Shown in pieces: positions 42,545 through 61,812 of a stretch of 64,000 bases of DNA. The notes under the pieces were generated by a model. The model was not told where the DNA came from, searched no databases, and saw nothing but the letters and a program-made list of their open reading frames with translations. Numbering within the stretch: the first letter of the stretch is position 1; each line of letters starts with the position of its first letter. The position numbers were made by a program, and so were the translations under genes. Source of the stretch: an uncultured Lentisphaeria bacterium (GTDB lineage: Bacteria > Verrucomicrobiota > Lentisphaeria > Victivallales > UBA1829); contig CASDPB010000047.1 of NCBI GenBank assembly GCA_949282305.1, positions 155,514 to 219,513 of the forward strand, given 5' to 3'.

Positions 42545-42563
42545 ACCTCAGGATCCGTTTCTC

Positions 42564-43598: not shown

Positions 43599-43620
43599 AC
43601 CATTTTCTCCTTTTTTCAAT

Positions 43621-43689: not shown

Positions 43690-43698
43690 CCTTTTTCT

Positions 43699-45585
43699 TT
43701 AATATGTGTCCAAATCCAGTTTCTTTCCGGAATCGAATCCCCATTGTCCATAGCCGTAGGAATTGCTGTTTCCGGCATCTTTGGTCGCATCGCGGATGAC
43801 CTGAATATCGGAATTGATGTTTTCCGGAAGCGCGCTGTCGGGACGGACACTTTCGCATTCCGCCACTACGACCAGCTGCGATTTCTTTGTGGATTCGCTT
43901 TCCGTCGAAAACGCCCAGCCGATCAGCGGAATGTCCTTGAGAATCGGAATACCGCCCTGCCCTCTCACGACATCCAGTTTCTCAATGCCGCCGATCACGA
44001 AACGGTTGTTCCTGTTGCCGATCATGATACGGGTCGTCAGAGGCTCCAGCTGTGACTGCCGCGGCGTGCCGTCGGAAAGATACCCCATCAGCGTATTCGA
44101 TGTGATGGAAACGTCCAGAATCGTGGCATTCGCCGTAATGGAAGGCGTCACATCCATCCTGAACTGATAGCCGTTGGAGATTCCTTCCTCAATCTTGAAT
44201 CCGCTGTCGGAAAGAACATTTTCCTCTTCGCCCCACGTGATTCCCTGCACGCTGTCCGAAACCACGACTTTCTTCCCGTATTCCTGCCCGTTCTTGTAGA
44301 AGCGGGCCCCGTTGTGCGCCGTCAGTGTCACACGGACATCGCCGTTGGCGTCGGTTGTCTTCGCCGCCCCGACCACAGCATTTGCGGGGACGACCGCAAC
44401 CGCCGTTCCGCCCATGTCGATCATGTTCGTAACCGGCGTCACAGTGCCGTTTTCACTGTAGTTGCTGCCGAGCTGCATCTTGAACGCCGGATCAATCTGA
44501 TCGCCCTGTTTGGCATAGACGATTCCGGTGTTCCTCACAAGAGAGCCCTTTTTATTGTTGCGGACGGAAAGTTCTCCGGTGTAGGCGACTTTGCCTTTTC
44601 CCCTGGAGACAAGGAAGTCAAGATAACGGGTATTCCACTTCGGATTGAAATTGAAATACTGGGAATTGTTGGAACCGGCGCCGCGCTGAAGTCCGCCGCC
44701 GAAAGCCGCAGACCAGTTGTCGCGGTATCTCGCGCCCGTGCTGAAGAAATCCGCGCCGTCATTGTTCTTCCATGCCTGGAAGTCGGCGCCGAGGCGTCCG
44801 TCGTTTTCCGCGTAAATTTCATAAATCATATATTTCACGCGGACTTCCGGATGCGGGATGTCGTAAAGTTTCAGCATGTCCTCGATATTCTTGCGGGAGT
44901 AGAGAGCGGTGCTGAAGAAGAGACAGTTCAGTCCGCCGTCCACGGCGACTTTGTCCTTGCCGCCGATCAGTTCCACCGTGTCGTCGGAAACGTTTGCACC
45001 GACATTTTTGATCATCGTCTCAAGTTCACTCGCCGGACGGTTCGCGGGGAAATAGATGAATTTCGGCTGACCGGACGAGTTTCTGATGCCGGGCTTGTCC
45101 AGATGGGCAACGATGGAATCAATCCCCATGCCGTTCGGACTGTCTTTGAAACGGTATTCCTCGGCGGAGATGATGACCGCCCCGGTGCCGTCGGCAAACT
45201 TGACGCACTCAACTCCGGAGGGAATCGCAATATCGTTCTTGGTGCGATAGATGTTGTAATAGTTGTGCGGCTGGTTCGGATCTTCCCCGTCCTTGTAGTT
45301 TACGCGCAGCGCCTGGACCATTTCACGCAGATACGGGCGAATCTCATAGGCGTCGGCGTGCTTCAGGAGATAAGTTTTCGTAATGATTTTCGGATCGTTG
45401 GTATCGCGGATGAAATGAACCATTTCGGTGCCTTCCCTGATGTTCAGGCGGAGCTGAGCCTGCACCATGGACGGAGAATACGCGGGATTTGCATTGCCGG
45501 TCGGCATTTCATTGGCAAGAAGTGTCGAACCGCAGAGTGCGAGAAATGCCGTGACAGCCGATCTTTTCATATTTTTTCTTTTCAT
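43699..45585 (-). CDS. secretin-family outer-membrane protein (paralog B)
   Basis: 628 aa. Signal peptide MKRKNMKRSAVTAFLALCGSTLLA. N-domain-like KTYLLKHADAYEIRPYL. C-terminal secretin signature GGIPILKDIPLIGWAFSTESESTKKSQLVVVAECE. Confidence 0.8.
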   Translation of the reverse strand: MKRKNMKRSAVTAFLALCGSTLLANEMPTGNANPAYSPSMVQAQLRLNIREGTEMVHFIRDTNDPKIITKTYLLKHADAYEIRPYLREMVQALRVNYKDGEDPNQPHNYYNIYRTKNDIAIPSGVECVKFADGTGAVIISAEEYRFKDSPNGMGIDSIVAHLDKPGIRNSSGQPKFIYFPANRPASELETMIKNVGANVSDDTVELIGGKDKVAVDGGLNCLFFSTALYSRKNIEDMLKLYDIPHPEVRVKYMIYEIYAENDGRLGADFQAWKNNDGADFFSTGARYRDNWSAAFGGGLQRGAGSNNSQYFNFNPKWNTRYLDFLVSRGKGKVAYTGELSVRNNKKGSLVRNTGIVYAKQGDQIDPAFKMQLGSNYSENGTVTPVTNMIDMGGTAVAVVPANAVVGAAKTTDANGDVRVTLTAHNGARFYKNGQEYGKKVVVSDSVQGITWGEEENVLSDSGFKIEEGISNGYQFRMDVTPSITANATILDVSITSNTLMGYLSDGTPRQSQLEPLTTRIMIGNRNNRFVIGGIEKLDVVRGQGGIPILKDIPLIGWAFSTESESTKKSQLVVVAECESVRPDSALPENINSDIQVIRDATKDAGNSNSYGYGQWGFDSGKKLDLDTY

Positions 45586-45604
45586 AATCGCTCAATCTCC
45601 TCTG

Positions 45605-47095
45605 TTATTTCTTCGCCGGGACAAGATCCGTCAGAGAGGTCATGCGGCCGGAGAGCTCCGCAATGTCCGCATCAGGATGGATGAACTCGGCGGTGACGGT
45701 CAGGAAAAAATGGGTCTTGTCAATATTTTTCGTGGTATAGCCGAAAATATATTTCAGCACCGGAAGTTCGCAGAGGAACGGAATGCCGATCGTCTGCTCC
45801 ACTTCGGAATCCTTCGTCCACGAGGTCAGCAGCTTTTCATGGTTGACTGCCATCGTCACATAAGAGTCGACGCTGCTGGACTCCGTCAGCTCTTCACCGT
45901 AGTTGTTCCGTTCCACAACCTGCGAAGAATTCAGCAGATAATTGAAATTGACGTTGCCGCCGAATTTTCTGCTGTAATCCTCCTTTGTAAAAGGCAGGAG
46001 CCCGTCTTTGTCCGGCTTGACGGAATTGAAGCAGATCACCGGATTGGAAATCGTAACGGAAAATTCAGGCATGGAGGAACGGATAAACGTCTTGTCGTTC
46101 TCCTCGCCGTCCTTCACCAGATTCTGGTATTCCGGCGTGAAAGCGAGCTCGTAGCTTCCGCCCTCGTTATTGGTGATCGTGAGGCTGCCGCTGCCCGCAA
46201 GCGTTGCTTTCCCGTTCTGCTGCAGAAGACGGATGAAGCTCATGTCAAAGGCAGGCGCCACAAAAAAACCGCCGTAGGAATAGGAAAACGCGCCGGCAGC
46301 GGAGGGAGCCGCCTGGAGCAGCGTCTGAATCAGCGCCTCATTCAATTTCAGACTTGTCAAATCGAATCCGGCAGCCATGAGATCCATGCCGGGACCGTTT
46401 TTCCATGCCAGATAGTCAACGCCGAGATCACGCATCGTACTTTCGCGGATTTCGTAAATATGGAATGTCAGGTTGACCTGCGGAAGCGGGCGGTCCAGCC
46501 AGCCGATGTATTTGATCAGGTCGCGCGTCTTGTTGCCGGAATCCTTCCAGTAGATCAGGTTTGTGGCTTCGTCGTATTGAACGACCGCGTCCTGCTTCCG
46601 GTCGCTCGTCGCATTGGAGGGAATTCCCGTGTCGCTCATGATATCCACAATCTCCTGACTGGAGCGGAACTTCGGCGTATAGACGTAACGCTGAATCCCG
46701 GTTCCGTCAAGAAGAGAACCGAACGGTCCGCGTTTCGCCGATGGACGGTCCAGCTTGGCGACCATGTCATCCACGTAAGGCATCATTTTCACGCCGGTGG
46801 TGACAACGATCATCTGTTTTGCCGAATAGTTGATGCGGTCAACCGTGGAGTTTGAGGAGTAACGCTTCACGGCGCCAAGGACAAACGGCACCAGATCGTT
46901 CGCCTTGAGATGCTTCAGATCATAGACCTTGCTGACCATATAGTTCTGGGCATCGTCCTCCTTGAATCTGATTTTCTGGACTTTGTCCGGTGCTGGCTCT
47001 TTCGTTTCAGAAGCGGGGTCGAAAGCTGCCGCGTCCATCGCGCACAGCAGTCCGCAGGCACCGCCAAGACTGACTCGAAACCATTTGTCATTCAT
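45605..47095 (-). CDS. secretin-family outer-membrane protein (paralog A)
   Basis: 496 aa from ATG 47095 (AAGGAG SD; ORF opens at TTG 47149). Signal-like MNDKWFRVSLGGACGLLCAMDAAA. N-domain-like SKVYDLKHLKANDLVPFV. C-terminal IGIPFLCELPVLKYIFGYTTKNIDKTHFFLTVTAEF. Confidence 0.75.
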   Translation of the reverse strand: MNDKWFRVSLGGACGLLCAMDAAAFDPASETKEPAPDKVQKIRFKEDDAQNYMVSKVYDLKHLKANDLVPFVLGAVKRYSSNSTVDRINYSAKQMIVVTTGVKMMPYVDDMVAKLDRPSAKRGPFGSLLDGTGIQRYVYTPKFRSSQEIVDIMSDTGIPSNATSDRKQDAVVQYDEATNLIYWKDSGNKTRDLIKYIGWLDRPLPQVNLTFHIYEIRESTMRDLGVDYLAWKNGPGMDLMAAGFDLTSLKLNEALIQTLLQAAPSAAGAFSYSYGGFFVAPAFDMSFIRLLQQNGKATLAGSGSLTITNNEGGSYELAFTPEYQNLVKDGEENDKTFIRSSMPEFSVTISNPVICFNSVKPDKDGLLPFTKEDYSRKFGGNVNFNYLLNSSQVVERNNYGEELTESSSVDSYVTMAVNHEKLLTSWTKDSEVEQTIGIPFLCELPVLKYIFGYTTKNIDKTHFFLTVTAEFIHPDADIAELSGRMTSLTDLVPAKK

Positions 47096-47164
47096 AGAAA
47101 CTCCTTTGTTTCCTTGTTTGGTTTTCGGCATTTCCGCCGTCGATACCAATAAGATAAACCCTGA

Positions 47165-47204
47165 AAATTAGCCTCGGGTAAAGTGCTTGTTAAAGTTTCG
47201 TTAA
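47165..47204 (-). promoter_or_regulatory. candidate secretin-operon promoter with a proximal pair of phased TTAACA-type repeats
   Basis: On the minus strand, TTAACG-aaact-TTAACA (47204-47188, 11-bp period). The second hexamer acts as the -35, followed by a 17-nt spacer and TAATTT (47170-47165). Confidence 0.4.
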
Positions 47205-47266
47205 CTTCTTTTCCGCATCTTTTTCTAACAATATACTGTCCGGAAATTCAGGATGAATTAAGAAAA

Positions 47267-47283
47267 TGTTAGACTTCTGTTAA
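47267..47283 (-). promoter_or_regulatory. distal pair of phased TTAACA-type repeats (Pho-box-like)
   Basis: On the minus strand, TTAACA-gaagt-CTAACA with an exact 11-bp period. Confidence 0.35.
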
Positions 47284-47442
47284 ATGCGGCAAAAAGTCCC
47301 CGCCCCCGAATGTTGGAAATCCGCAAGGAAAATATGAAATGCGGCACGGCAATGGCACCCCGACGGCTTTTCCGCCGGAAGCCCCGGAACCGGCGGAAAC
47401 CGGAACATTTCCAGAAAAATGTATTTATTTTCCGCCGTCCAA

Positions 47443-47470
47443 TTGAAAAACTGAAAAAGAAGAGTATATT
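47443..47470 (+). promoter_or_regulatory. sigma70-type promoter for the second LacI-family gene
   Basis: TTGAAA (47443-47448), 16-nt spacer, TATATT (47465-47470). It lies 50 nt upstream of ATG 47520. Confidence 0.5.
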
Positions 47471-47519
47471 GGCAAAGTCCCTAAACCGCTTTAGGATAAC
47501 ATCTTATCTGGAGAATACG

Positions 47520-48506
47520 ATGCTGAAGAAACGACTTACCTTACGCGATATTGCAAAAAAAGCAAATGTATCTTTGACTTCGGCATCCATGTATCTGAAC
47601 GGGAAAGCCCGCGCAAACCATATTTCCGAAAAAACCTGCGCCCGGATTGAAGAAGTCATCCGGCGGGAAAATTATCAGCCCAATGTCAATGCGCGCGCCA
47701 TGGCTATGAAACGGACAAATCTGGTCGGATGCGTCATGCGGGACAGCCTGGAAAGTTCCTTCTGGGCGGACATCCTTGCGGGAATTGATGAACAGCTTGC
47801 GCCGGAGAATATTCATCTGCTCCTGACCGTCTCCTCCGGCGGACTGGAAGCGGAAATGCAGGCTTTTGAATTTCTGCGCGCGAAAGGCGTCGATTCCTAT
47901 ATCTGGATTCCGACTGTAAAACGGGGCGGCAGCAACAATTATGAATCAATCCGGGAGTTTTCCGCGGAGCGCCCGGTTGTCACGCTCACAAGTCTGGTGG
48001 AGGGACTTCATGGAGTTGCCGTCGACGATGAAGCGGGAGGGCGTCTCGCCGCACGCCATTTTGTGGAAAACGGACACCGAAAACTTGCAACACTCGCAGG
48101 AAGCCGGGTCTACAAACGCTGCGAATACTTCGCGGACGAGGCAGAAAAACTCGGAGCGGAAGTCACCGCATTCAAGCACCTGGAAGACATCGCACCGGTC
48201 ATTCGGGACTTTACGGCCGTATTCTGTTTTTCCGACATGAAGGCGCTGGAGCTGTACAAATTCTGCGCCGGAGCAGGAGTACGCATTCCCGCAGACCTTT
48301 CAGTAATCGGTTATGACAATCTTTTGTTCACAGACCTCATGCTGCCTTCCCTGACCACAATTCACCAGCCGAAGCACGAACTGGGGCGTGAAACGGGAAA
48401 GCTCGTATTGAAAGCACTCGCAGACAAGAAACTGCCGCCGGAACAGATCAAACTCCCGCCGGAGCTGATTCTCCGCGCAAGCACGGCGAAATTCGTGCCG
48501 CAATGA
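47520..48506 (+). CDS. LacI-family transcriptional regulator
   Basis: 328 aa from ATG 47520 (GGAG SD; the longer ORF from 47310 is a basic low-complexity extension). HTH LTLRDIAKKANVSLTSASMYLNGK. Confidence 0.85.
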   Translation: MLKKRLTLRDIAKKANVSLTSASMYLNGKARANHISEKTCARIEEVIRRENYQPNVNARAMAMKRTNLVGCVMRDSLESSFWADILAGIDEQLAPENIHLLLTVSSGGLEAEMQAFEFLRAKGVDSYIWIPTVKRGGSNNYESIREFSAERPVVTLTSLVEGLHGVAVDDEAGGRLAARHFVENGHRKLATLAGSRVYKRCEYFADEAEKLGAEVTAFKHLEDIAPVIRDFTAVFCFSDMKALELYKFCAGAGVRIPADLSVIGYDNLLFTDLMLPSLTTIHQPKHELGRETGKLVLKALADKKLPPEQIKLPPELILRASTAKFVPQ

Positions 48507-48625
48507 ATCCGCTCAGGAAAAAACGCCCGGAACAGGCGGTCCGGCGCTCCGGAGATGCAGAATTCCGAAGATTACCGGAACGATGCCGCCATCGTGAAAA
48601 AAAGGCAAATCAATTTTTCCCGCTA

Positions 48626-48654
48626 TTGCCATATTTCCATTCAGGATGTATATT
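48626..48654 (+). promoter_or_regulatory. sigma70-type promoter for the LysM...murI gene string
   Basis: TTGCCA (48626-48631), 17-nt spacer, TATATT (48649-48654). It lies 33 nt upstream of ATG 48687. Confidence 0.5.
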
Positions 48655-48686
48655 GATTCCCCAATATAACTGTGTGGGAGATTTTT

Positions 48687-49715
48687 ATGCCTAAACCGGG
48701 AATAACCTACAAAGGAAAATCAATTGGGGCGTCTGGAAAAGGCGGCTCGAAAAAGAAAAACGGCGAAAGCGCCGGAAGCAGCAGATGGCTCTGGTTCTTC
48801 GCAGTTGTCCTGATCGTTGCCGCCATTGCTTTTGCCGGCTACTGGTTTACACGCAGGCAGACGGTGCTGATTCCCACGACTCAGGAGGTTTCCGAAACGA
48901 TGCGCCGTCTGACGGGCACCGGGGAGGAGGAGCCCGCGGTTCCGGCAAGCAATCTGCCGGTCAGCATTCCGGAGGATCAGGGCATCGCCATCAAGACTCT
49001 GGCAAACGGAGAAAAACTGTTCGCCATGAAGCGTTATTCCGCGGCAAGAGACCATGCGCGGCGCGCAATCGGGATTTTCAAGTATGCGGATCCGAACTGG
49101 CAGAAAAGCGTGGAGCTTCTGAATAAAGCCAGCACCCGGATTCTGAACGGCGACGGCAATTCGCCCGAAACATTCGTGTACACGGTTCAGCGCGGAGACA
49201 CCTTCACCAGAATAGGGGCGAAATTCGGAACAACCGCGGAAGCCGTCCAGCGGATCAATAAAATCTCCATTGCAAGAAGCGACCTGAAAATCGGTCAGGA
49301 GCTGACCGTTTACCATGGCAAATGGAATCTGAAGATCAGCAATGCCCGCAAGAAACTGTTCCTCTATGACGGGCAGAATCTCTTCAAGGTTTATCCGATC
49401 GGCGTTGCCATGGAGTTCAATTCCGCGCAGGGGCTTTACAAGCTCACTTCCAAGGTGAAGTATCCTATCTGGAAATACAAGGAAAGCAGTTACAATCCCG
49501 GCGATCCCCTGAATATTCTCGGCAGCCGGTATCTCGGCTGCGAAGACGCCGCCGATTACAAGATAAAGCAGCCGTTCCTGATTCATGGAACCAACAGGGC
49601 TGAAAATATAGGGAAAACAATCGCCGGACCGGGTTTCATCAGCATGAGGAACGAAGACATCAACGAGCTGTTTTCGATCATCCCGAACGGCATAGAAGTG
49701 GAAGTAATCAGATGA
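48687..49715 (+). CDS. membrane-anchored LysM + YkuD (L,D-transpeptidase)-like protein lacking the catalytic cysteine
   Basis: 342 aa from ATG 48687 (GGGAG SD). TM anchor WLWFFAVVLIVAAIAFAGYWF. LysM YTVQRGDTFTRIGAKFGTTAEAVQRIN. YkuD-like core LIHGTNRAENIGKTIAGPGFISMRNEDINELFSIIPNG, where the usual (S/H)xGC(I/V)RM is GPGFISM. Confidence 0.75.
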   Translation: MPKPGITYKGKSIGASGKGGSKKKNGESAGSSRWLWFFAVVLIVAAIAFAGYWFTRRQTVLIPTTQEVSETMRRLTGTGEEEPAVPASNLPVSIPEDQGIAIKTLANGEKLFAMKRYSAARDHARRAIGIFKYADPNWQKSVELLNKASTRILNGDGNSPETFVYTVQRGDTFTRIGAKFGTTAEAVQRINKISIARSDLKIGQELTVYHGKWNLKISNARKKLFLYDGQNLFKVYPIGVAMEFNSAQGLYKLTSKVKYPIWKYKESSYNPGDPLNILGSRYLGCEDAADYKIKQPFLIHGTNRAENIGKTIAGPGFISMRNEDINELFSIIPNGIEVEVIR

Positions 49716-49762
49716 CTGCCCGTGCGGGGCGGATCGTCCAAGAACAATATCGGAGAAGATAA

Positions 49763-50734
49763 ATGGCTGAAATCGTGCTTGAGTTTGAAAAACCGATTGC
49801 TGAGCTGGAAGCAAAACTTGCGGAATGGGAGTCTCTCAGCTCGTCCAACAATATGAGCGTTGACGACGAACTGAACGCTTTGAAGCGGAAGATTGAGGAG
49901 ACGAAAAGGAATGTCTACAGCTCCCTGACGCCGTGGCAGAGAGTTCAGCTCGCCCGTCATCCGAACCGCCCCTATACCCTGGACTATATAGAGCGCATTT
50001 TCACGGATTTTCTTGAATTCCACGGCGACCGCCGTTATGCGGACGATCCCGCCATCGTCGGAGGGTTCGCCAAACTCGACGGCAATCCCGTCATGGTCAT
50101 CGGGACTCAGAAAGGCAGAAACACCAAGGAAAACGTCTTCCGCAATTTCGGCTGTCCGCATCCGGAAGGCTACAGGAAAGCCCTGCGCCTCATGAAGATG
50201 GCGGATCTCGCGGGGGTTCCTGTCATCACCTTCATCGACACCCCCGGGGCATTCCCCGGAGTCGCATCCGAGGAACGCCACATCGGTGAAGCCATCGCGG
50301 TCAACCTGCGTGACATGTTTTCGCTGACGGTTCCCGTTGTCGCGGTCGTGATCGGCGAAGGAGGCAGCGGCGGCGCGCTCGGCATCGGCGTCGGCAACAC
50401 CGTGCTCATCATGGAAAACGCCTATTACTCCGTGATTACTCCCGAAGGCTGTGCGGCAATTCTGTGGAAAGACCGCGCCTACTCCGAAAAAGCAGCGGAG
50501 GCGCTTCATCTGACCGCAGGCGATCTGACGGAACTCGGTCTGGTTGACGGCATCGTCAAAGAACCTCTCGGAGGAGCGCACAAGGATTACGATACGGCTG
50601 CGGAGCTCCTGAAAAAGTCCGTAGTTTCCGCCCTCGGCAAATATGAAAAGATGTCCGGCGAAGAATTGAAAGCATCCCGTTACGAACGTTTCCGCAGTAT
50701 TGCATTCTATCGCGACCCCTCGGACGCAAAGTAA
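49763..50734 (+). CDS. accA: acetyl-CoA carboxylase carboxyltransferase alpha subunit
   Basis: 323 aa. Conserved RPYTLDYI, PVITFIDTPGAFPG, and VVIGEGGSGGALGIG. Confidence 0.95.
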   Translation: MAEIVLEFEKPIAELEAKLAEWESLSSSNNMSVDDELNALKRKIEETKRNVYSSLTPWQRVQLARHPNRPYTLDYIERIFTDFLEFHGDRRYADDPAIVGGFAKLDGNPVMVIGTQKGRNTKENVFRNFGCPHPEGYRKALRLMKMADLAGVPVITFIDTPGAFPGVASEERHIGEAIAVNLRDMFSLTVPVVAVVIGEGGSGGALGIGVGNTVLIMENAYYSVITPEGCAAILWKDRAYSEKAAEALHLTAGDLTELGLVDGIVKEPLGGAHKDYDTAAELLKKSVVSALGKYEKMSGEELKASRYERFRSIAFYRDPSDAK

Positions 50735-50748
50735 AAAGTGGCGGCATC

Positions 50749-51216
50749 ATGGATCATTTGAACATTCGTCCCGCGGAACCGGGGGATGTCGGAAAAATCT
50801 GGGAACTGCTTGCGGCTTATGCGCACGAGCGGCTTCTTCTCGCGCGTCCGCAGGAGGACATTCAGGAAAAGCTGAAAAATTTCCGCGTCGGGGAAATCGA
50901 CGGGGAATTCATCTGCTGTCTCGCCCTGCGGAATTTCGGCAACGGGCTCTACGAGGTGCGCTCGCTGGCAGTCCGCCGCGAATACAACAATCGCGGCATC
51001 GGTTCCAGACTGGTTCAGGGGGCGGTCGATCACCTGAAGACGCTGGGGAAGCCGTGCCGCGTTTTCGCCTTGACCTACCGCGCTCATTTTTTCCATCGTC
51101 TAGGCTTTCAAACTGTCGACAAGGAACTGTTCCCGCAAAAAATCTGGAGTGACTGCTCGAAATGCCCGAAGAAAGAACATTGCGACGAGACGGCGGTTCT
51201 GCTGGAACTGAACTGA
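50749..51216 (+). CDS. GNAT acetyltransferase of the ArgA/N-acetylglutamate-synthase-like type
   Basis: 155 aa. YEVRSLAVRREYNNRGIGSRLV acetyl-CoA motif and the C-terminal LFPQKIWSDCSKCPKKEHCDETA Cys cluster typical of this small GNAT subgroup. Confidence 0.75.
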   Translation: MDHLNIRPAEPGDVGKIWELLAAYAHERLLLARPQEDIQEKLKNFRVGEIDGEFICCLALRNFGNGLYEVRSLAVRREYNNRGIGSRLVQGAVDHLKTLGKPCRVFALTYRAHFFHRLGFQTVDKELFPQKIWSDCSKCPKKEHCDETAVLLELN

Positions 51217-53123
51217 TTCACCTGACGCCCCACCACGACGATCCGGAGGAAGCCGCGCAAATCCGCGACTCCTTCAAGGCGGTGCGCAGCGACAAGGTGG
51301 ATCTCTTTGTCTATGGCACCATGATGAACGATCATCATGTCCGTCTGCTGTTCAACCGCAAAGTGGACAGCGAACCGGCAATTCTCCATAATTATATGCG
51401 TGTCGTTCCTCCGGGAGCTTTCTTCTTCATCGTCAAACAGCACGGCGCGGTCACGCAGGGGCGCCTACTGAAAGATCTTACCCGCGAAGAGCTTGCGCGG
51501 ATCGACGCCTTCGAGGACGAAGGCAATCTCTATTACAGAAAAGTGGTCGTCGTCCGCACGCAGGAAAACCGGCGGCGGCGCTGCATGACCTACGTCGGCA
51601 ACATTTCCGCGCTCCAGAAATCCTTCGGGAAGGAAATTCTCTTTGAAGACCGTTACAGTCTCTATCTGGAGCGAAAAATCGACCAGATTCTCGAGAAGAT
51701 CGAACCGGACCGCCACGAAATCACGCGCCGCGCCCTCCGCGAACTCATGGGTTCGGCGGTGGACAGCCTGATCGAATCTCATTTCGACGGCAATTACATC
51801 TGCAACTATATCATGATTCAGGCATTCAATGATGCGCGGCCTCCCCTTCTGGCGAATGTCATGGCGATTGAGGAACTGCGTCCCTACGCGGACAATTATA
51901 TCCGCTTTGCCTGCAAGCACATCATTTTCAATCAGCTTGTGGAACTGATCCGCCACCATTTCCCCGACGCCGTCCGCCTCTCGAAGAAATATTTCAGACA
52001 CGGTGTTGCAATCCTGCTGGCGTTTCTTTACTACAACGGGCGTTATGAACGCATCCGCAGGTTGATGATGGAAAAGTCGCTGGATCGGATCGTTCCGGGG
52101 CGTCTTTACCGGGATTACGCAGTGCTCTGCATCAATCTGGTTGAGGAAATCTACAACCGCGATGAAATGGCGGCGATCTGCAACGATGTAGATCAGCACT
52201 GGTATTCCACACCGACGCCGCTGGGAGCGGAACTGGAATTCAGTCATCTCGGCGCGCGTGCAGTGGTGGCGGAGCCCGGCGAAGACCAGTTCTACGACGG
52301 TTTCTTCTGGTTCAACGACTTCGATCTCCAGCGCCGCACCTGGCGCATGGGGGGGCACGTGGATTCCCATAGGACAGTGGTCGCGGGAAACGAGCGTCAC
52401 CGCGGCTTTTTTGAATATGCCTTCGGACGCTTCAATATCGTCGGCGACCTCTCGCGCCCTCTGTTCGACTGTCCGTGGGCAATGTCCAAACTGATTAATG
52501 AAGCGGTGCGTTTTCTGGACATTCCTCCGCACAGTCTCCACATTTCCATGGAACTCTCCGGCGAAAAGCATTCGCACATCACCGCGGTGCCGCACAAATT
52601 CAGCGATCTGGCGTGTCTGCTGATGCTCGGGGGGGATCTGCGCAGGGATGACGAAGGCAGACTCCGCGAATGGCGTATCTTCAACAGGGAACTGGACACC
52701 AACATGCGCGGCTCCCTGAATTTCTCGGACCGCAAATACCATTACAGCCGTCCGGAGCAGAGCGAAGACGAGGCGTCGGACGTCATGGAATACAAGTTTC
52801 TGCGTCTGCGGGAGGAAGAGACGGACTACTCCAATGTGATCGTGGCATTGAAAGGTTATCAGTTCGGCACCCACGCCCGCCCGATTTCCATTCCGAAACA
52901 AGGGCAGCCGGAGCTTCCGGAACAGCTTTTTCTGCGTGAGTGGGCGGCTTCTCCCCAGTCGCTCTCCATTCCGGAAATCCAGGCGTTCGTCGATACGGTC
53001 GAACGGGGGCTCTGCGAAGAACACAACGTGAAGAAAGTGAATAAACGCGGACAGACCTATCTCGAAAACATCTATTTCACGCTGCTGGAAAGGAATGCCT
53101 ATGTCGCAAAGAATGCCAGATAG
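51162..53123 (+). CDS. fusion protein: N-terminal gamma-glutamylcyclotransferase (GGCT/AIG2-like) domain + about 500-aa uncharacterised domain
   Basis: 653 aa if ATG 51162 is used (55-nt overlap with the GNAT gene; alternative GTG starts at 51282 and 51297). GGCT motifs DLFVYGTMMN and RIDAFEDEGNLYYRKVVVV. The remainder matches no family I recognise. The 3' end overlaps murI by 29 nt. Confidence 0.65.
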   Translation: MPEERTLRRDGGSAGTELIHLTPHHDDPEEAAQIRDSFKAVRSDKVDLFVYGTMMNDHHVRLLFNRKVDSEPAILHNYMRVVPPGAFFFIVKQHGAVTQGRLLKDLTREELARIDAFEDEGNLYYRKVVVVRTQENRRRRCMTYVGNISALQKSFGKEILFEDRYSLYLERKIDQILEKIEPDRHEITRRALRELMGSAVDSLIESHFDGNYICNYIMIQAFNDARPPLLANVMAIEELRPYADNYIRFACKHIIFNQLVELIRHHFPDAVRLSKKYFRHGVAILLAFLYYNGRYERIRRLMMEKSLDRIVPGRLYRDYAVLCINLVEEIYNRDEMAAICNDVDQHWYSTPTPLGAELEFSHLGARAVVAEPGEDQFYDGFFWFNDFDLQRRTWRMGGHVDSHRTVVAGNERHRGFFEYAFGRFNIVGDLSRPLFDCPWAMSKLINEAVRFLDIPPHSLHISMELSGEKHSHITAVPHKFSDLACLLMLGGDLRRDDEGRLREWRIFNRELDTNMRGSLNFSDRKYHYSRPEQSEDEASDVMEYKFLRLREEETDYSNVIVALKGYQFGTHARPISIPKQGQPELPEQLFLREWAASPQSLSIPEIQAFVDTVERGLCEEHNVKKVNKRGQTYLENIYFTLLERNAYVAKNAR

Positions 53124-53934
53124 GACCAATCCGCCGGACAATCGTCCCATCGGCGTTTTCGATTCCGGAATCGGAGGGCTGACTGTCGTGCGCGCCCTGC
53201 GGTGCGCCCTGCCGAATGAGGACATCTGCTACCTCGGCGACACGGCGCGTGTCCCCTACGGCAGTAAATCCGTGGATTCGATCATCCGTTTTGCCGGGGA
53301 AGACGCCGCATTTCTTGTGGAAAAAGGGGTCAAGGCGCTGATCGTTGCCTGCAACACCGCTTCCGCCGTGGCAATGGATTCCCTGCGGAAACACTTTCCC
53401 GCCCTTCCCGTCATGGGAGTGATTGAAGCCGGGATCGAAGCCGTCATGCGAACCGGCGCGGAACGGATCACGGTCATCGGGACACGTGCAACGGTCAGCA
53501 GCGACGCCTACCGGCGCGGACTTCACGAACGCAGACCGTCGCTCCTGATCGAAAGCATTCCGTGCCCGCTTTTTGTCCCGCTGGCTGAAGAGGGGCAGTT
53601 TGAGGGCAAACTTGCGGAGGAGGCGTTTGACCTTTATCTTTCGCATCTGCGCAGATCGCCGCCGGAGGTGCTTCTGCTCGGCTGTACGCATTATCCGCTT
53701 TTCCGCCAGGCGCTGGAACGTTATTTTGAATGAAAAGTGAGGATCATCGACAGTGCGGAGGCGTGCGCGGAATCCGCACGTGTGTTTCTTGATGGAAATT
53801 CCATTGCGGCAAGCCTTGCAAAAACAGGGAATGTACGCTATTATTTTACGGATCTGCCGTCCGACTTCAACGGCGGTCTGTGGCGTTTTCTCGGCAGCGC
53901 GCCTTCCTATATGGAAAAAGCGCAGCTGGGATAG
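53095..53934 (+). pseudogene. murI: glutamate racemase reading frame interrupted by one in-frame TGA (53731-53733): pseudogene, assembly error or read-through gene
   Basis: IGVFDSGIGGLTV, first catalytic motif VACNTAS, second LGCTHYP, then ..ERYFE*KVRIIDSAEACAE.. continuing in the same frame to TAG 53932-53934. The combined length of 279 codons is normal for MurI. Confidence 0.75.
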
Positions 53935-53975
53935 TCGGAAAACAAAAATGAATCCTATTCGGAGAAGAAAAAGTA

Positions 53976-55580
53976 ATGAATGAAAAGCGGGAACATTGGT
54001 CTGGGAACTGGGGATTCCTGATGGCTCTGGCGGGTTCGGCAATCGGTCTCGGCAACATCTGGAAATTCCCTTATGTAACAGGAAAATACGGAGGCGGGGC
54101 ATTTGTCCTCGTCTATCTGTGCTGCATCATGGTGATCGGGATTCCGATCCTGATCGGGGAACTGACCATCGGGCGCGCCACGGGTCTGAATCCCGTCGAA
54201 GCCTTCGCGGCGCTCTGCCCGAAACGTTCCAAACTGGCGGACTTTCTCGGCGGCATCGTTCTGCTTTCGGGAATCGCCCTGATCACTTTCTCCCAGATAG
54301 GCTACGGCATTCTGGTCATGATTCTCGGCGCCGCCATTCTCTACGGAGGATGGAAAACAATCGGGCTGGTCAGCGGCGTCATCACCCCTTTTCTGATTCT
54401 CGGCTATTACGGCGTGGTCGGCGGCTGGACGCTGATCTATGCGGTCAAAGCCGTCACCGGCAATCTCGTGTTCAAGACCGCAGCGGAAGCACAGGCGGCA
54501 TTTCTTCCGATTCAGCAGGCGGCTCCCGGAACCTGGTGGTATGTGATCGGCGGACAGCTTGCATTCATGACATTGTGCGGAATCGTCCTCTGGTTCGGGG
54601 TTAAAAAGGGAATTGAGCGCTGTTCCAAGGTGCTGATGCCGTCACTCTTCCTCCTGCTGATCGTGCTGATTCTGCGCAGCATCTCCCTGCCGGGAGCAAG
54701 CGCCGGAATCAAGTTCTTCCTTTCGCCGGACTTTTCAAAACTCTCCGCCGAAGCGGTGCTTGTGGCGCTGGGACAGGCATTTTACACGCTGAGTCTCGGC
54801 ATGGGCATCTCCATTGTATACGGCAGCTACGTCAAGAAGGAAACAAACCTTCCGAAGAGCGTTCTTCAGCTGATCGGGCTGGACACGATGGTGGCAATGA
54901 TGGCGGGACTGGCAATCTTCCCCGCAGTCTTCGCCATGGGATTCGAGCCGGCGGCGGGCGAGGGACTGGTGTTCCAGATTCTTCCGACCGCATTCAACAT
55001 GATTCCCGGCGGACTCGGCCCCGTCTGGAGCACATTCTTCTTCATTGCCGTGGCAATCGCCGCCATCACGAGCGGCATCAGCCTCATGGAAGTGATCGTG
55101 TCCGTACTGATTGACTACTTCAAAATGAAACGCCGGACGGCGGTGCTTCTGTCCTGGAGCACCATCTCCGTCCTCGGCGTCTTCTGTTCCATCAGCATGA
55201 GTTCCTGGAAAAACATTCCGTGGATGGAAAAGGGACTGACCACTCTCTTCGGAACACCTCCCGAAAGCCTGTTCCTGACGCTGGACAACCTGACCGCGAA
55301 CTGGTTTCTTCCGGCGGCGGGCATGGCAATTTCATTTTTCGTCGGCTGGGTATGGGGCGTGCGCAACGCCATGAATGAAATCCGCAGAGGCGCGGGACGC
55401 GAGCTGGATACCAACTTCTTCATTCTGCTTTCCGGCATGCGCGGCGAATCCGGTTACGGTGATTCCTACAAGCATATTTTCACTCCGGCATCCGTCTGGG
55501 GATTCTTCATTCGTTTCATCACGCCGATCAGCGTCATGTTCGTGTTCCTGAATATGACGGGAGCCATCAAGTTCAACTGA
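53976..55580 (+). CDS. sodium-dependent transporter, neurotransmitter:sodium symporter (SNF/NSS) family
   Basis: 534 aa. N-terminal signature WGFLMALAGSAIGLGNIWKFPY. About 12 hydrophobic segments. Confidence 0.9.
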   Translation: MNEKREHWSGNWGFLMALAGSAIGLGNIWKFPYVTGKYGGGAFVLVYLCCIMVIGIPILIGELTIGRATGLNPVEAFAALCPKRSKLADFLGGIVLLSGIALITFSQIGYGILVMILGAAILYGGWKTIGLVSGVITPFLILGYYGVVGGWTLIYAVKAVTGNLVFKTAAEAQAAFLPIQQAAPGTWWYVIGGQLAFMTLCGIVLWFGVKKGIERCSKVLMPSLFLLLIVLILRSISLPGASAGIKFFLSPDFSKLSAEAVLVALGQAFYTLSLGMGISIVYGSYVKKETNLPKSVLQLIGLDTMVAMMAGLAIFPAVFAMGFEPAAGEGLVFQILPTAFNMIPGGLGPVWSTFFFIAVAIAAITSGISLMEVIVSVLIDYFKMKRRTAVLLSWSTISVLGVFCSISMSSWKNIPWMEKGLTTLFGTPPESLFLTLDNLTANWFLPAAGMAISFFVGWVWGVRNAMNEIRRGAGRELDTNFFILLSGMRGESGYGDSYKHIFTPASVWGFFIRFITPISVMFVFLNMTGAIKFN

Positions 55581-55590
55581 AAAAACAAAA

Positions 55591-55635
55591 GGGTGGAAAC
55601 AGAGAAAACGGAATCTCTTTTCCACCCGTCTTCCA
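55591..55635 (+). terminator. candidate terminator after the NSS transporter gene
   Basis: 9-bp stem gggtggaaa/tttccaccc (55591-55599 / 55619-55627) starting 11 nt after the TGA. The trailing sequence is only moderately T-rich. Confidence 0.4.
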
Positions 55636-55745
55636 TTTCCCTCCCCCGGGAAAGCATAATTTTTCATTTTTTCTTCTGAAAACCGCTTTCTTTGACAGCT
55701 TCCTATGATAAATTAAGTGCCCGTCAAAACAACAAGAAGGCATTT

Positions 55746-56885
55746 ATGTCTGAAATTCTCAGAATCGAAAACATCAGCAAGAGCTTCGGCTCTCAGAAAG
55801 TCCTTGACCACATTTCCCTTTCCATCGGTGCCGGCGAGATTTTTTCCATGCTCGGTCCCAGCGGCTGCGGGAAAAGCACCCTGTTGAGGATCTGCGGAGG
55901 CTTTGAAGAGCCGGACGAGGGACGGATCATCCTGGACGGGGAGGACATTACACGTGTTCCCCCCAATAAACGCGGAATTCACACGGTATTTCAGAGCTAT
56001 GCGCTCTTTCCGAACATGACCGTGTGGGACAATATCGCGTTTCCCCTGAAAATCGCAAAGGCGGAGAAGAAGTACATCAGACAGGAGGTCGAGAAATATC
56101 TTGACATGATCCAGATGACCGAACACGCCGACAAGAAACCGCGGGAACTCAGCGGCGGTCAGAAGCAGCGTGTCGCAATCGCCCGCGCCCTCGTGAACCG
56201 TCCGAAAGTGCTTCTGCTGGACGAGCCTCTTGCCGCGCTGGATCTGAAACTGCGCCAGAGAATGCTGGTGGAACTGGATTCCCTGCATGAAGACGTCGGC
56301 ATTACATTCGTCTACGTGACCCATGACCAGCAGGAGGCAATGAGCATCAGCAACCACATCGCCGTCATGCACCAGGGAGTTGTGGAACAGGAGGGGACAC
56401 CGACTGAAGTCTACGAGGCGCCGAAAAACAGTTTCGTCGCCGCATTCATCGGAGACACCAATTTTTTCGAGGGGACAATCTGCGACCTGCACGGCGACTA
56501 CTGCATCCTGAAAATCGAAGGGTTTCCCCCGTTGGAAGTCTTCAACGACAAAAAGATGAAGGAAGGCGAACACGCCCACCTGAGCATACGCCCGGAAAAA
56601 TTCTCGGTCACGCTCGAAAAACCGGAAAATCTGCCGCCCCGGACCAATCTCTTCCGGGGCAGAGTGGAGGATGTGATTTATCTCGGTGCACAGACACGGC
56701 TCTGGATCCGCGTCGGAGAACGTCTTGTCGCCGTGGTGAAGCAGCACACGTCGTTTGCGCTCGACCGGAAAATCCGTTACAAAGACGATGTCTGGCTCAC
56801 CTGGCACGCCGACAACGCATATATGCTGGAGGACTACCGTCCCGCGGATGAATCTCTTGTCCTCCACCCGGATATCGGAAAATGA
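55746..56885 (+). CDS. potA: spermidine/putrescine ABC transporter ATP-binding protein
   Basis: 379 aa from ATG 55746. Walker [23 protein letters not shown], and a C-terminal TOBE-like domain. Confidence 0.9.
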   Translation: MSEILRIENISKSFGSQKVLDHISLSIGAGEIFSMLGPSGCGKSTLLRICGGFEEPDEGRIILDGEDITRVPPNKRGIHTVFQSYALFPNMTVWDNIAFPLKIAKAEKKYIRQEVEKYLDMIQMTEHADKKPRELSGGQKQRVAIARALVNRPKVLLLDEPLAALDLKLRQRMLVELDSLHEDVGITFVYVTHDQQEAMSISNHIAVMHQGVVEQEGTPTEVYEAPKNSFVAAFIGDTNFFEGTICDLHGDYCILKIEGFPPLEVFNDKKMKEGEHAHLSIRPEKFSVTLEKPENLPPRTNLFRGRVEDVIYLGAQTRLWIRVGERLVAVVKQHTSFALDRKIRYKDDVWLTWHADNAYMLEDYRPADESLVLHPDIGK

Positions 56886-57772
56886 AAACCTCCGCAAGAA
56901 AAAAACTCAATGAGATTCTCCTCTCCTCGCCGTCGATGATCTGGCTGATTCTCTGGTTCGTGATCCCGACCGTCATCGTGTTCCTGATGGCATTCAAGCC
57001 AGTGGATCCATGGGGCGGAATCGGTTCCGGCTGGACTCTGCAGACAATCCGGGAGCTCTCGAACCCGAACTATCCCGAAATCGTCGTCAGGACTCTGGCG
57101 CTCGGCGTCGGTTCGACTCTGATCTCCATCCTGATCGCCCTGCCGCTGGGGTATTATCTGGCGCGCGTCCCGAAGAAACTGCGCGACCTGCTCCTGCTGC
57201 TGATTATTATTCCTTTCTGGACCAACTTCCTGATCCGCATCTTCGCATGGAAGGTTCTGCTCCATGCGGAGGGGCCCCTCGCAAGATTTCTAATTTATGT
57301 CGGGGTTCTGCCGCAGGACGCGACTCTGCTTTACAATCCGTGGGCGGTGCTGGCAGTCATGGTCTATTCCTACCTTCCGTTCGCGATTTTGCCGGTCTAT
57401 GCGGCGGCGGAGAAGTTCGACTTTTCCCTGATCGAAGCCGCACAGGACCTCGGAGCGACACGGCTTCAGGCATTTTTCCGCGTTTTCATTCCCGGTATCA
57501 GCCGGGGCATCTGGACCGCGACCATCGTGGTATTGATTCCTGCGCTCGGTGCGTATCTGATTCCGGACCTCGTCGGCGGAACCGCCAGCGAACTGATCGG
57601 CGACAAAATCGCGCAGCGCACATTCATCGACCGCAATCTGCCGCACGCCAGCGCACTGTCCGCACTGCTGATGTTCGTCGTGATGATCCCGATTTTCTTC
57701 GTCGTGTTCTTCACCGGCTCCCGCAAGTCCATCACGGGAACCGGGCATTCACGGGGAGTGAAGCAGAAATGA
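56882..57772 (+). CDS. potB: spermidine/putrescine ABC transporter permease
   Basis: 296 aa, polytopic. EAAQDLGATRLQAFFRV loop. ATGA overlaps on both sides. Confidence 0.85.
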   Translation: MKTSARKKLNEILLSSPSMIWLILWFVIPTVIVFLMAFKPVDPWGGIGSGWTLQTIRELSNPNYPEIVVRTLALGVGSTLISILIALPLGYYLARVPKKLRDLLLLLIIIPFWTNFLIRIFAWKVLLHAEGPLARFLIYVGVLPQDATLLYNPWAVLAVMVYSYLPFAILPVYAAAEKFDFSLIEAAQDLGATRLQAFFRVFIPGISRGIWTATIVVLIPALGAYLIPDLVGGTASELIGDKIAQRTFIDRNLPHASALSALLMFVVMIPIFFVVFFTGSRKSITGTGHSRGVKQK

Positions 57773-58599
57773 AAGAACATTACCTGACAAAACGGAGTTT
57801 CTTCCCGAAATTCGTCACGTGGACGACGATCGTGTTTTTCTACATCCCGCTTCTCGTGGTCGCCGTCAACTCCTTCAACCGGAGCAAGGGCGGCGGCGTC
57901 TGGAAAGGATTCACATTCCAATGGTATGCACAGCTGTTTTCCGACACCCGCATTTGGGAGGCTCTGCGAAACACGCTCGTCATCGCCTCGTTCGCAACTG
58001 TCATTGCAACGGTTCTCGGTACACTCTGCGCTTTTGCCCTGCACCGCTACCGCAGCAGACTCCAGAAAACCCACTACATGCTGGTCTACCTGCCGCTGAT
58101 CGTGCCGGACATCCTGCGCGGAATCAGCATGTTGCTGCTGTTCGTCCTGCTGTTCGCATGGATCAATCCCATTCTGCGCCGGACAGTGGGCATCCGGATC
58201 AATCTCGGTATCACGACGATCATCATCGCGCACATTACATTCTGCCTCAGTTACGTGGCGATGGTAGTTCTGGGACGGCTTCAGGACTTCGATTTCTCGC
58301 TTTATGAAGCCGCTCTGGATCTGGGGGCGAACAAATTCCAGGCATTTTCCAAAGTCGTGATTCCGGCAATTATGCCGGGGATTCTCGCCGGCGCCCTGCT
58401 CTCGTTCACGCTCTCGCTGGATGACTACGTAATCACGTTCTTCGTGGCGGGCAAAGGCTCCCTGACGCTTCCCATTTACATTTACGGTTCCATGAAACAC
58501 GGCAATCCGGCAGTGATCAACGCACTCTCCGTGATCCTGCTGATCGTCACGTTCATCACAGTCTATATCGCACAGAAACTTCTGGAGGATAAAAAATGA
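57769..58599 (+). CDS. potC: spermidine/putrescine ABC transporter permease
   Basis: 276 aa from ATG 57769 (MKEHYLTK). EAALDLGANKFQAFSKV loop. The longer ORF from 57010 is an out-of-gene extension over potB. Confidence 0.85.
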   Translation: MKEHYLTKRSFFPKFVTWTTIVFFYIPLLVVAVNSFNRSKGGGVWKGFTFQWYAQLFSDTRIWEALRNTLVIASFATVIATVLGTLCAFALHRYRSRLQKTHYMLVYLPLIVPDILRGISMLLLFVLLFAWINPILRRTVGIRINLGITTIIIAHITFCLSYVAMVVLGRLQDFDFSLYEAALDLGANKFQAFSKVVIPAIMPGILAGALLSFTLSLDDYVITFFVAGKGSLTLPIYIYGSMKHGNPAVINALSVILLIVTFITVYIAQKLLEDKK

Positions 58600-59630
58600 A
58601 ACAACTTTCCCTGTCCCTTCTCGTCTTCCTGGCTCTCCTGTTCTCCGGGTGCGGCGGCAGACCGGCGCTTTACATCTACAACTGGGGCGATTACGTTTCG
58701 CCGGAGGTCATCAGAAAGTTCGAGAAGGAATACAATTGCAGGGTTGTGCTGGATTTCTTCGACTCGAACGAATCCATGTATGCCAAGCTGAAAGCCGGCG
58801 GTGGCGGATACGATCTGATCGTCCCGTCCACTTACATGACGGATATGATGTATGACCAGAAAATGCTCCGTGAACTTGACAGAAGCAGACTCCCGAACCT
58901 GAAATACATCGATCCGGACTATCTGAAGAAAGTGCGCGATTCGGAAATGAAGTATTCCGTGCCGTATCTCGTAAGTTTCACCGGCATCGGATACAACAAG
59001 AACAAAGTAAGAAACTTTGAACCCTCATGGCGCATGTTTGAAAGGGAGGACATCCGGGGACGCTGTGTGCTTCTGAACGATCCGCGTCAGGTGATCGGCG
59101 CGGCGCTGATCACGCTCGGTTACGACCCGAACACCCGCAACGAAGAGGAGATCGGCAAAGCCGCGGATCTTGTGATTCAATGGCGCCGGAATATCGCAAA
59201 GTTCGACGTCGACGAGGCAAAGCGCAGCCTGATTTCCGGAGAATTCTGGCTGATCCAGACTTACAGCGGCGATATGCTTCAGGCTCTGGACGAAAATGAA
59301 AATATTGAGTTTGCTTTCCCGAAAGAGGGCTGTATCTTCACCGCCGACACCTTCGTGATCCCCGCCGATGCAGTCAATGTGGATCTGGCGTATGACTTCA
59401 TCAACTTCATGCACCGCCCGGAAATCGCCGCGGAAAACATGCAGTTCGTCAAATTCCGCTGTCCCAATACCGAAGCCCTGAAAATGCTGCCGGAAAAACT
59501 GAAAAACAAGCCGAGCATCAATCCGACGAAAGCACAGTGGGACGCCGCCATGCCGACACTTGATCTCGGAGCGGACACCCGTCTCTACAATGCCGCGTGG
59601 GACAGAATCAAAAGCGGAAGCGCGGACTGA
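58596..59630 (+). CDS. potD: spermidine/putrescine-binding periplasmic protein
   Basis: 344 aa. Lipoprotein-type signal LFSGCGG. LYIYNWGDYVSPEV and DLIVPSTYM blocks typical of PotD/PotF. Confidence 0.85.
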   Translation: MKQLSLSLLVFLALLFSGCGGRPALYIYNWGDYVSPEVIRKFEKEYNCRVVLDFFDSNESMYAKLKAGGGGYDLIVPSTYMTDMMYDQKMLRELDRSRLPNLKYIDPDYLKKVRDSEMKYSVPYLVSFTGIGYNKNKVRNFEPSWRMFEREDIRGRCVLLNDPRQVIGAALITLGYDPNTRNEEEIGKAADLVIQWRRNIAKFDVDEAKRSLISGEFWLIQTYSGDMLQALDENENIEFAFPKEGCIFTADTFVIPADAVNVDLAYDFINFMHRPEIAAENMQFVKFRCPNTEALKMLPEKLKNKPSINPTKAQWDAAMPTLDLGADTRLYNAAWDRIKSGSAD

Positions 59631-59643
59631 ACCGGTTCCGCGG

Positions 59644-60654
59644 TTATGCGGATTTTCCGGTTCCGCAGATTTTCCCGCGGAAAAACAGCATTCCGCCGCC
59701 AATCAGCAGAAGGCAGACTCCCGCCCGGAACAGCCATCCGGTCTGATTCAGCCGGCTGGACAGGATATATTCGACCGTGTCCGTGCCATCTCCGGAATCC
59801 ACTCTCCTGCACTCCGCCGCCATGCCGCCATCGGGTAGAAACTCCACCATCCAGTAACCGTAACGCGGGTCCTTCCCTTCCCCCTTCTGTCCGGAAGTCG
59901 GAACAACCAGAAGCGGCGCACCCGCGAACTCCCAGCGCGCCTCCGCATGCTGGTGCCCGGCAACGATCAGCGAAACGCGATACTCCCGCAGAAGCGGTTC
60001 CAGGCGGCGGACATCCTCATCAGGCAGACATTCGCCGCGCCCGTCGCCGCGCAGATCGACCGGGGGAACATGCGTGAACACAACCAATCTGCTGAAATGG
60101 CTTCTTTCCGCCTTGAGAACCTCTTCCAGACGTTCAACTTCCCCGGCTGCCAGACGTTCCGCGGAGGTGTCCAGCGACACAAACAGCGAATCCCCCCAGG
60201 CAAACCAGTATCCGGGCTGTCCGAAGGAACCTTTGTATGCACGCAGACCGTTTTCACGCGGATCCCTTGATTCCCTGTCATTGTTTCCCGGCGTGCAGAA
60301 AATCTTCAGATCCCCCGCCGCGCGTTTCATCCGTTCGGCAAGCCAGCAGAAATGCCGGACTTCACGTTTTCTCGCCATGTCCCCGACGCAAAGCGCAAAA
60401 TCCGCCCCACTGCTGCGGACAGCCCTCACCACCGCTTCAAACGGCTCCGTTTGAATCCGGAAGTCGCCGAACACGGCAAAGCGCATCCCCGGCTTCTCCG
60501 GATGGAAAAAACGTCCTGCCGGGGGAAGCATCAGCGGGGAGGCGTGCCCGTCATATCTTCGCTGCAGTTCATAGCAGAGTGTGCACAACACCGCCCCGAC
60601 GGCAATCAAAGCGCAGCCTCCGGCTGACAAGATTTTTTTGCGTATGTCCGACAT
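59644..60654 (-). CDS. membrane-anchored metallophosphoesterase (calcineurin-like)
   Basis: 336 aa. FAVFGDFR, CVGDMA, TPGNNDRE and VFTHVPP motifs. Hydrophobic segments at both termini. Confidence 0.8.
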   Translation of the reverse strand: MSDIRKKILSAGGCALIAVGAVLCTLCYELQRRYDGHASPLMLPPAGRFFHPEKPGMRFAVFGDFRIQTEPFEAVVRAVRSSGADFALCVGDMARKREVRHFCWLAERMKRAAGDLKIFCTPGNNDRESRDPRENGLRAYKGSFGQPGYWFAWGDSLFVSLDTSAERLAAGEVERLEEVLKAERSHFSRLVVFTHVPPVDLRGDGRGECLPDEDVRRLEPLLREYRVSLIVAGHQHAEARWEFAGAPLLVVPTSGQKGEGKDPRYGYWMVEFLPDGGMAAECRRVDSGDGTDTVEYILSSRLNQTGWLFRAGVCLLLIGGGMLFFRGKICGTGKSA

Positions 60655-60675
60655 TTTCCCGAGTTCCGTTCCAGG

Positions 60676-60710
60676 TTGACCAGCAGAATTTCTATACTAT
60701 ATCTATACTA
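60676..60710 (+). promoter_or_regulatory. candidate promoter overlapping two 11-bp-phased TCTATACTA direct repeats
   Basis: TTGACC (60676-60681), 16-nt spacer, TATATC (60698-60703). TCTATACTA occurs at 60691-60699 and 60702-60710. Confidence 0.4.
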
Positions 60711-60817
60711 AATTCTAAATCAAGTATAAAAGAAGTTTTTTTTCTGGAAAAAGAAGGTGGACAGCACATGTTATAGGAAAAAAGTTATGAAAATGGAAAT
60801 TGATATGGTCTTGCCTT

Positions 60818-61183
60818 ATGGGACGAAGAATCAGAATTACGAATGAAATCCGCTCGGCAATTTCCCAGGCGATTGAAGCGCTTGGCTCGCAAAGCGAACT
60901 GAGCCGCCGAAGCGGGGTTCCGCAGAAGAACCTGAGCAACTATATCAGCAGTGCGAACAGCCTGATGAACGAGGCAACCTGGATGCAGCTTCATCCTTTC
61001 GTCCGTGATTTCCTGCCGTATGAAAAGACAGCGGAAAAAAAGGATCTTCTGACCGTCTGCCATCTGGAAGGGATCACCACGCGGGCAGAAATCATATCGG
61101 AGCTGGTGCAGCGTGTCGCGGAATGTGACGAACTTGATGAACATGCGCGCCTTACCGTCATCCGCCTGCTTTCCCGGAAATAG
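60818..61183 (+). CDS. small XRE-like helix-turn-helix protein
   Basis: 121 aa from ATG 60818 (the ORF opens at TTG 60800; no clear SD). HTH-like LGSQSELSRRSGVPQKNLSNYIS. Confidence 0.55.
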   Translation: MGRRIRITNEIRSAISQAIEALGSQSELSRRSGVPQKNLSNYISSANSLMNEATWMQLHPFVRDFLPYEKTAEKKDLLTVCHLEGITTRAEIISELVQRVAECDELDEHARLTVIRLLSRK

Positions 61184-61432
61184 GGGAAACTCCGGCATGT
61201 TTTTGCGCCGCACACTCTAAAACCGCATGGAGAAACGGAGCAAGCGTCAAGCTCCGCCGTGCCGCCGCAAACGCACATCAGACACGTTCTGAAAACAAGT
61301 CAGACTTCAGCCGGAACGAATCCGGCGGAATATGCGGACCGCGGTCTCACCGGTTCGGAACCCACCGGCACGGCATTCAGTCATTCTCCGCATCATGAAA
61401 CCGTTCTCTCTCCATGCGGACGAAACGGCAAG

Positions 61433-61804
61433 TCACTCACCTTCCAGGATCACCGTCGCGACGGCATGGAGCTTTTCATGGCTGATGGAAAGATGGATCC
61501 GCTTCACGCCGAGGGCGTCCGCCGTCCGTTTCGCATTGCCGGAAAGCGTCATGACGGGGCGCCCGCTTTCCGCATCGCGCAGAATCTGAATGTCCTCAAA
61601 CGCGCATCGGGAACCGATTCCGGTTCCGAGAGCCTTGGAAAGCGCCTCCTTCGCGCACCAGCGCCCCGCCAGATAGGAAACACCGTCAAATTCGGCGGCT
61701 TCCCGTTCCGTCAGGACACGGCGCAGGAAACAGTTTCCGTGACGCAACATCATCTTTTCAATGCGTGCGCAGTCCGTAATGTCCGTTCCGAGTCCAAGAA
61801 TCAT
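61433..61804 (-). CDS. acpS: holo-[acyl-carrier-protein] synthase
   Basis: 123 aa. MILGLGTDITDCARIE start, WCAKEALSKALGTG, and the SISHE motif. Confidence 0.9.
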   Translation of the reverse strand: MILGLGTDITDCARIEKMMLRHGNCFLRRVLTEREAAEFDGVSYLAGRWCAKEALSKALGTGIGSRCAFEDIQILRDAESGRPVMTLSGNAKRTADALGVKRIHLSISHEKLHAVATVILEGE

Positions 61805-61812
61805 GAATGCAC

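Follow-up and report, generated by a model that had tools for sequence, protein, structure and literature searches.

Glutamate racemase, the product of murI, is essential in most bacteria that make peptidoglycan, and it is indispensable wherever there is no alternative source of D-glutamate (D-Glu). The 64-kb stretch of DNA analysed here (the window) carries a murI gene whose reading frame is broken by an in-frame TGA. The question raised by this locus is whether the codon reflects special decoding, loss of the enzyme, or an accident confined to one sequence.

The interrupted murI gene and its neighbourhood

The murI frame comprises 279 codons, and codon 213, which stands as TGA within GAA TGA AAA GTG, is its sole internal stop (Table 1). 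An earlier note, made from the sequence alone, had described a single TGA within an otherwise intact glutamate racemase gene, and this description is borne out by translation and by Pfam and PDB matches. With X in place of the stop, the product matches the Asp/Glu racemase family PF01177 (E=4.8e-23; 82.5 bits, the cut-off being 31) and 23 glutamate racemases of known structure at E<1e-20, the best being 3out (E=6.6e-60, residues 15-274). Both catalytic Cys motifs, VACNTAS and LGCTHYP, lie intact upstream of the TGA, as had been claimed; C86 and C197 are invariant in the alignment of relatives (A1), and the other invariant residues are also present. Beyond the TGA the frame does run on to a normal MurI length, with 66 sense codons followed by TAG at 53932-53934. 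For the intact orthologue, gene callers start at the ATG equivalent to position 53101, giving a protein of 277 aa, and such a gene is called at the equivalent place in contigs L012, L013, and L001-L009. The uninterrupted frame of about 255-290 codons expected of MurI is lacking in the window, and contigs L012 and L013 of the same strain have it. The C-terminal remnant of the window gene has an entry of its own, protein P0121, which stems from one NCBI contig (239,496 b), and the internal TGA therefore exists in the public record.

Upstream of murI lies a gene for a 653-aa protein in which only an N-terminal GGACT domain (gamma-glutamyl cyclotransferase-like) is recognised, leaving some 500 residues with no assigned domain. 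The gene order GNAT, GGACT-653, murI, SNF transporter is kept in sister Lentisphaeria species, and the GGACT protein may be functionally connected with D-Glu or gamma-glutamyl metabolism.

Table 1. Position of the features discussed in the text, numbered from the first base of the window
Feature	Position	Strand	Remarks
630-aa ORF	26784..28676	+	good coding score, no Pfam match
Short Gfo/Idh/MocA protein gene	29819..30652	+	277 aa, N-terminal Rossmann domain only
66-nt tandem repeat	30780..31087		4.6 copies, 91% matches; within minus-strand gene 30734..32158
Two tandem adjacent secretin-domain genes	43699..47149	-	628 aa and 514 aa
GGACT-domain protein gene	51162..53123	+	653 aa, domain N-terminal; end overlaps murI start
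murI, glutamate racemase	53095..53934	+	one interruption; translation, Pfam, alignment, PDB matches
Internal TGA	53731..53733	+	codon 213; T53731 is the sole base unlike contig L012 (GGA, Gly)
C-terminal remnant ORF	53737..53934	+	GTG start, 65 aa, the last 65 MurI residues
7-bp inverted repeat gtgcgga/tccgcac	53753..53779	+	arms 53753-53759 and 53773-53779; within murI coding sequence
SNF-family sodium symporter gene	53976..55580	+	downstream of murI

Codon 213 in other assemblies and in relatives

Contigs of the same strain were fetched via the downstream SNF transporter protein, which two ENA metagenome contigs encode in identical form. Gene calls on both give an intact adjoining murI of 277 aa, and over 881 aligned bases both differ from the window in one column, G (GGA, Gly) against T53731. 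One of them, L012 (ENA ERZ17292903, 14,573 b), corresponds to window positions 43976..58548 with that single mismatch; the other, L013, comes from a near-identical strain (ERZ17292901) and also reads GGA at codon 213. The contigs of ERZ17292903 span window positions 1742..58548 as three pieces with two short gaps between them. L014 is 100% identical to 1742..19950, L016 and L018 are 100% identical over 19973..42506 except for the length of the 66-nt tandem repeat, and L020 and L021 are 100% identical to 57633..64000. It follows that T53731 is the sole substitution between the window and ERZ17292903 over the ~55 kb compared. The window contig bridges the three short-read contigs of ERZ17292903 and carries two extra repeat units; it therefore represents this strain in a separate assembly.

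ERZ17292901 carries a few other SNPs, which mark it as a slightly different population from that of the window. Eight are clustered at a contig end (L013 1..61, window 52367..52427), and five are scattered along contig L015 (window 7270, 7272, 9591, 15123, and 16148); none occurs in the ERZ17292903 contigs. The pattern suggests that the two samples hold two closely related populations. When a collection of 15 billion proteins was searched for alleles, the intact form (P0151) was found on two ENA contigs and the interrupted form on one NCBI contig, where it is represented solely by the 65-aa ORF P0121. Exact look-ups with the N-terminal products (212 and 210 aa) and with P0121 yielded no contig encoding them. 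The earlier note had named a sense codon on re-sequencing as the outcome that would reduce the stop to a trivial error; the GGA of two other assemblies, from the same and a near-identical strain, is in effect that outcome, and these samples may share a study or host with the source of the window, so that the two GGA observations may not be fully independent. An established pseudogene would show a lesion common to independent genomes of the lineage, or else several lesions or relaxed constraint. The window murI does not fit this description: it has a single substitution and is elsewhere identical to the intact allele over the 881 aligned bases.

Two further genes of the window recur in the contigs of the same strain. 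The 630-aa ORF is also called there, again with no family assigned. The short Gfo/Idh/MocA gene, which is convergent with a full-length paralogue, is called identically in them and is thus not an assembly artefact. The 66-nt tandem repeat lies in the 3' part of that paralogue, an oxidoreductase gene, and encodes an Ala/Lys/Pro-rich tail of 22-aa repeats (AAPAKKVAVKAEPAKKTATAKA...). In the short-read contig (L016/L018) two units, amounting to 132 nt, are missing here, which represents either a true difference in copy number or collapse of the repeat in the short-read assembly.

The closest MurI proteins are full length (266-279 aa), 74-92% identical, and derive from gut metagenomes and from Lentisphaeria or Victivallales MAGs. 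The comparison of orthologues that had been called for is clear: the TGA aligns with Gly, not Cys, and in relatives the codon specifies an amino acid. The TGA column of alignment A1 holds Gly in 15 of the 19 informative sequences and E, K or P in the remainder; Gly is found in every full-length relative at least 74% identical, and all full-length relatives in related Lentisphaeria have a sense codon at this position. The aligned residue of the Aquifex enzyme (1b73) is likewise Gly. At the DNA level sister species read GAA GGC GGC GTG against GAA TGA AAA GTG in the window. A scan of genome contigs matched only two sister species, the GTDB representatives UBA11452 and HRGM_Genome_2866; in both murI is intact and 91% identical, and the translated loci have Gly. 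Being mostly Gly and otherwise E, K or P, residue 213 is, as judged from the alignment, a substitution-tolerant position directly before the conserved V-x-I-I-D-S strand.

P0009, a murI relative from another ENA metagenome (81% identical), is 212 aa long, as is the truncated product of the window gene, and was considered as a second truncation at the same site. It was rejected, since it is frameshifted just before LGCTHYP and does not share the stop; the equal length is a coincidence. A second cluster (P0002) holds many fragmentary murI calls of 88-186 aa from short contigs. A scan of JGI metagenome contigs with the 26 nt around the site, the variable base being left as N, gave no match, and a literature search on interrupted glutamate racemase genes returned nothing relevant.

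Stop-codon usage and candidate recoding signals

Genes of the window were predicted with a codon-usage model trained on genes whose boundaries are backed by homologous gene calls. The 50 predicted genes end in TGA (30), TAA (13), and TAG (7). TGA is thus the usual stop, in agreement with the earlier view that it is a genuine terminator for the neighbours of murI and that a reassigned code is unlikely. The genes that it ends include those for the exonuclease, metH, dxr, dtd, an ABC ATPase, a U32 peptidase, and potB. Under a reassigned code TGA would stand in frame in many genes and rarely serve as terminator, which is the opposite of what is seen. Pfam scans of essentially all 50 genes returned family matches, among them a 5'-3' exonuclease fragment at the window edge, metH, murG, ftsW, fumarase, an EF-G paralogue, ispG, rseP, dxr, dtd, folE, the pst/phoU/phoR operon, two secretins (the second of the tandem pair being a weak match only), a LysM-YkuD protein, accA, and potABCD. 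Besides murI, none of the scanned genes has an in-frame interruption, and this absence, together with stop-codon usage, led to rejection of an alternative genetic code. Two other places where a frame continues across a TGA, rsmE/murG/ftsW (5619..8738) and an ABC ATPase with its permease (32246..34228), proved to consist of separate complete genes and were rejected as interruptions. The 64-kb window contains no tRNA gene, no selA, selB, selC or selD, and no second racemase or D-amino-acid aminotransferase.

The hairpin that had been pointed out downstream of the TGA exists in that both 7-bp arms are present, starting 19 nt after the stop. The arms encode part of the gene itself, the conserved peptide SAEACAESAR. 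The RNA of 53728-53800 folds at -19.2 kcal/mol, compared with -17.65 +/- 2.89 for shuffled sequences (z = -0.54), a stability that 53 of 200 shuffles equal or exceed. In a sister species the 3' arm reads TCGGCAC, which breaks one pair. Rfam at gathering score found no family anywhere in the window; at E-value level, 53600..53950 gave no SECIS-like match and a single chance match to a snoRNA (E=1.2). The inverted repeat is not a recoding signal. Selenoprotein genes are expected to carry a conserved UGA at a Cys or Sec position together with a stable and conserved SECIS stem-loop, and neither feature is found here. Selenocysteine, which had been called improbable beforehand, is rejected on the quality of the fold, the lack of an Rfam match, and the absence of tRNA genes from the window. 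Programmed read-through would require that the stop and its context be conserved across both strains and species, and they are not.

Origin of the TGA and comparison with known systems

Read from the aligned sequences, the internal TGA is a private G-to-T singleton (GGA, Gly213, to TGA), found in one assembly alone. The TGA is not conserved, and an intact allele is present in the same strain. Since the other assemblies of the strain read a Gly codon, an error or a private mutation is indicated rather than a special coding mechanism. The murI of this strain would then be an ordinary intact glutamate racemase gene in need of no special decoding, and T53731 would be an error of sequencing, consensus calling or polishing, or else an unfixed variant taken up by the assembler. 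We regard an error or non-fixed variant of this kind as probable, and infer that an artefact, instead of a real mutation in the sequenced cells, is the most likely source of the T. Because murI is essential in most peptidoglycan makers, selection would purge a real nonsense allele that had become fixed, while errors are invisible to selection. Against an error stands the window assembly itself, which is otherwise error-free relative to ERZ17292903 over ~55 kb and not visibly error-prone. This accuracy elsewhere keeps alive the main rival, a genuine nonsense mutation that arose very recently in the clone or population sequenced, which deserves to be taken seriously without being the favoured account. 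Here murI would be a nascent pseudogene, and the cells would survive on D-Glu obtained by another route or from the surrounding gut, or would depend on basal leakiness of UGA. The presence of the TGA in the public record is consistent with such a mutation, as is the single lesion free of further decay that is expected of a very young one; and the variability of position 213 (G, E, K, P) means that an occasional read-through residue could be tolerated. It is opposed by the GGA of the same and the near-identical strain and by the lack of another racemase or aminotransferase gene in the window. Moreover, in the MurI fold the 67 missing residues complete the N-terminal domain, and the truncated product should therefore be inactive in an essential pathway. 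A genuine T that endures in a subpopulation of gut Lentisphaeria with a UGA-interrupted murI, sustained by leaky read-through at a loop position tolerant of substitution or by scavenging of gut D-Glu, seems highly improbable.

The options listed earlier were an error, a recent pseudogene, and read-through. The former two stand as ordinary readings, and read-through finds no support, given that the stop lacks conservation. More generally, the absence of the TGA even from the same strain means that all conserved or programmed readings (selenocysteine, programmed read-through, a changed code, a gene split by design) do not pass the tests that define them. Recoding of the UGA, whether as selenocysteine, by programmed read-through, or through a code in which UGA means Gly or Trp, could draw on the alignment of the TGA with Gly, as code 25 would give, and on the nearby hairpin. 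It is essentially excluded by the absence of the TGA from the same strain and all relatives, by the aligned residue being Gly and not Cys, by the role of TGA as terminator of most genes with no other gene interrupted, by the unremarkable and unconserved fold, and by the lack of tRNA and sel genes in the window. Just as implausible is a functional two-piece enzyme, in which translation would stop at the TGA and restart at GTG 53737, and fragments of 212 and 65 aa would assemble. The GTG does lie only 3 nt past the stop, and, to go by MurI structures, the break would fall close to where the polypeptide crosses back from the C-terminal into the N-terminal domain. The stretch before the GTG, however, shows no visible Shine-Dalgarno-like motif, no other assembly has the split, and the gene is one base away from the intact form in the same strain.

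Compared with known systems, the window gene resembles MurI (PF01177; 3out, 1b73) in similarity over its full length, in both catalytic Cys motifs and other invariant residues, and in the gene order of related Lentisphaeria; it is unlike MurI in one base, T53731, which turns codon 213 into a stop in the window assembly alone. Bacterial selenoprotein genes likewise have an in-frame UGA with a hairpin within ~20 nt, but the UGA of the window aligns with Gly at a non-catalytic, variable position, is not conserved within the strain, and is followed by a hairpin no better than shuffles. Laboratory mutants of E. coli defective in murI are D-glutamate auxotrophs and survive only with an external or alternative supply of D-Glu. 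A real nonsense allele would resemble these mutants, yet the window gives no sign of auxotrophy or of an alternative source. With the private nonsense SNPs and consensus errors known from draft genomes or MAGs, the window gene shares a single substitution with no other decay that is missing from other assemblies of the same strain. The change in the window is a G-to-T transversion, the kind of substitution that classically arises as an artefact of oxidative damage (8-oxoG) during library preparation. The value of the case is mainly that of a negative result, in which a striking in-frame UGA in an essential cell-wall gene comes down to a one-base singleton. It should be taken neither for recoding or an altered code nor for evidence that the lineage lost MurI; the record is best read as carrying a functional murI, or at most given a flag for a possible error or a private nonsense SNP. 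The murI of the window is ordinary in every tested respect save one base and presents nothing new, its nearest known category being that of private nonsense SNPs or errors in draft genomes or MAGs.
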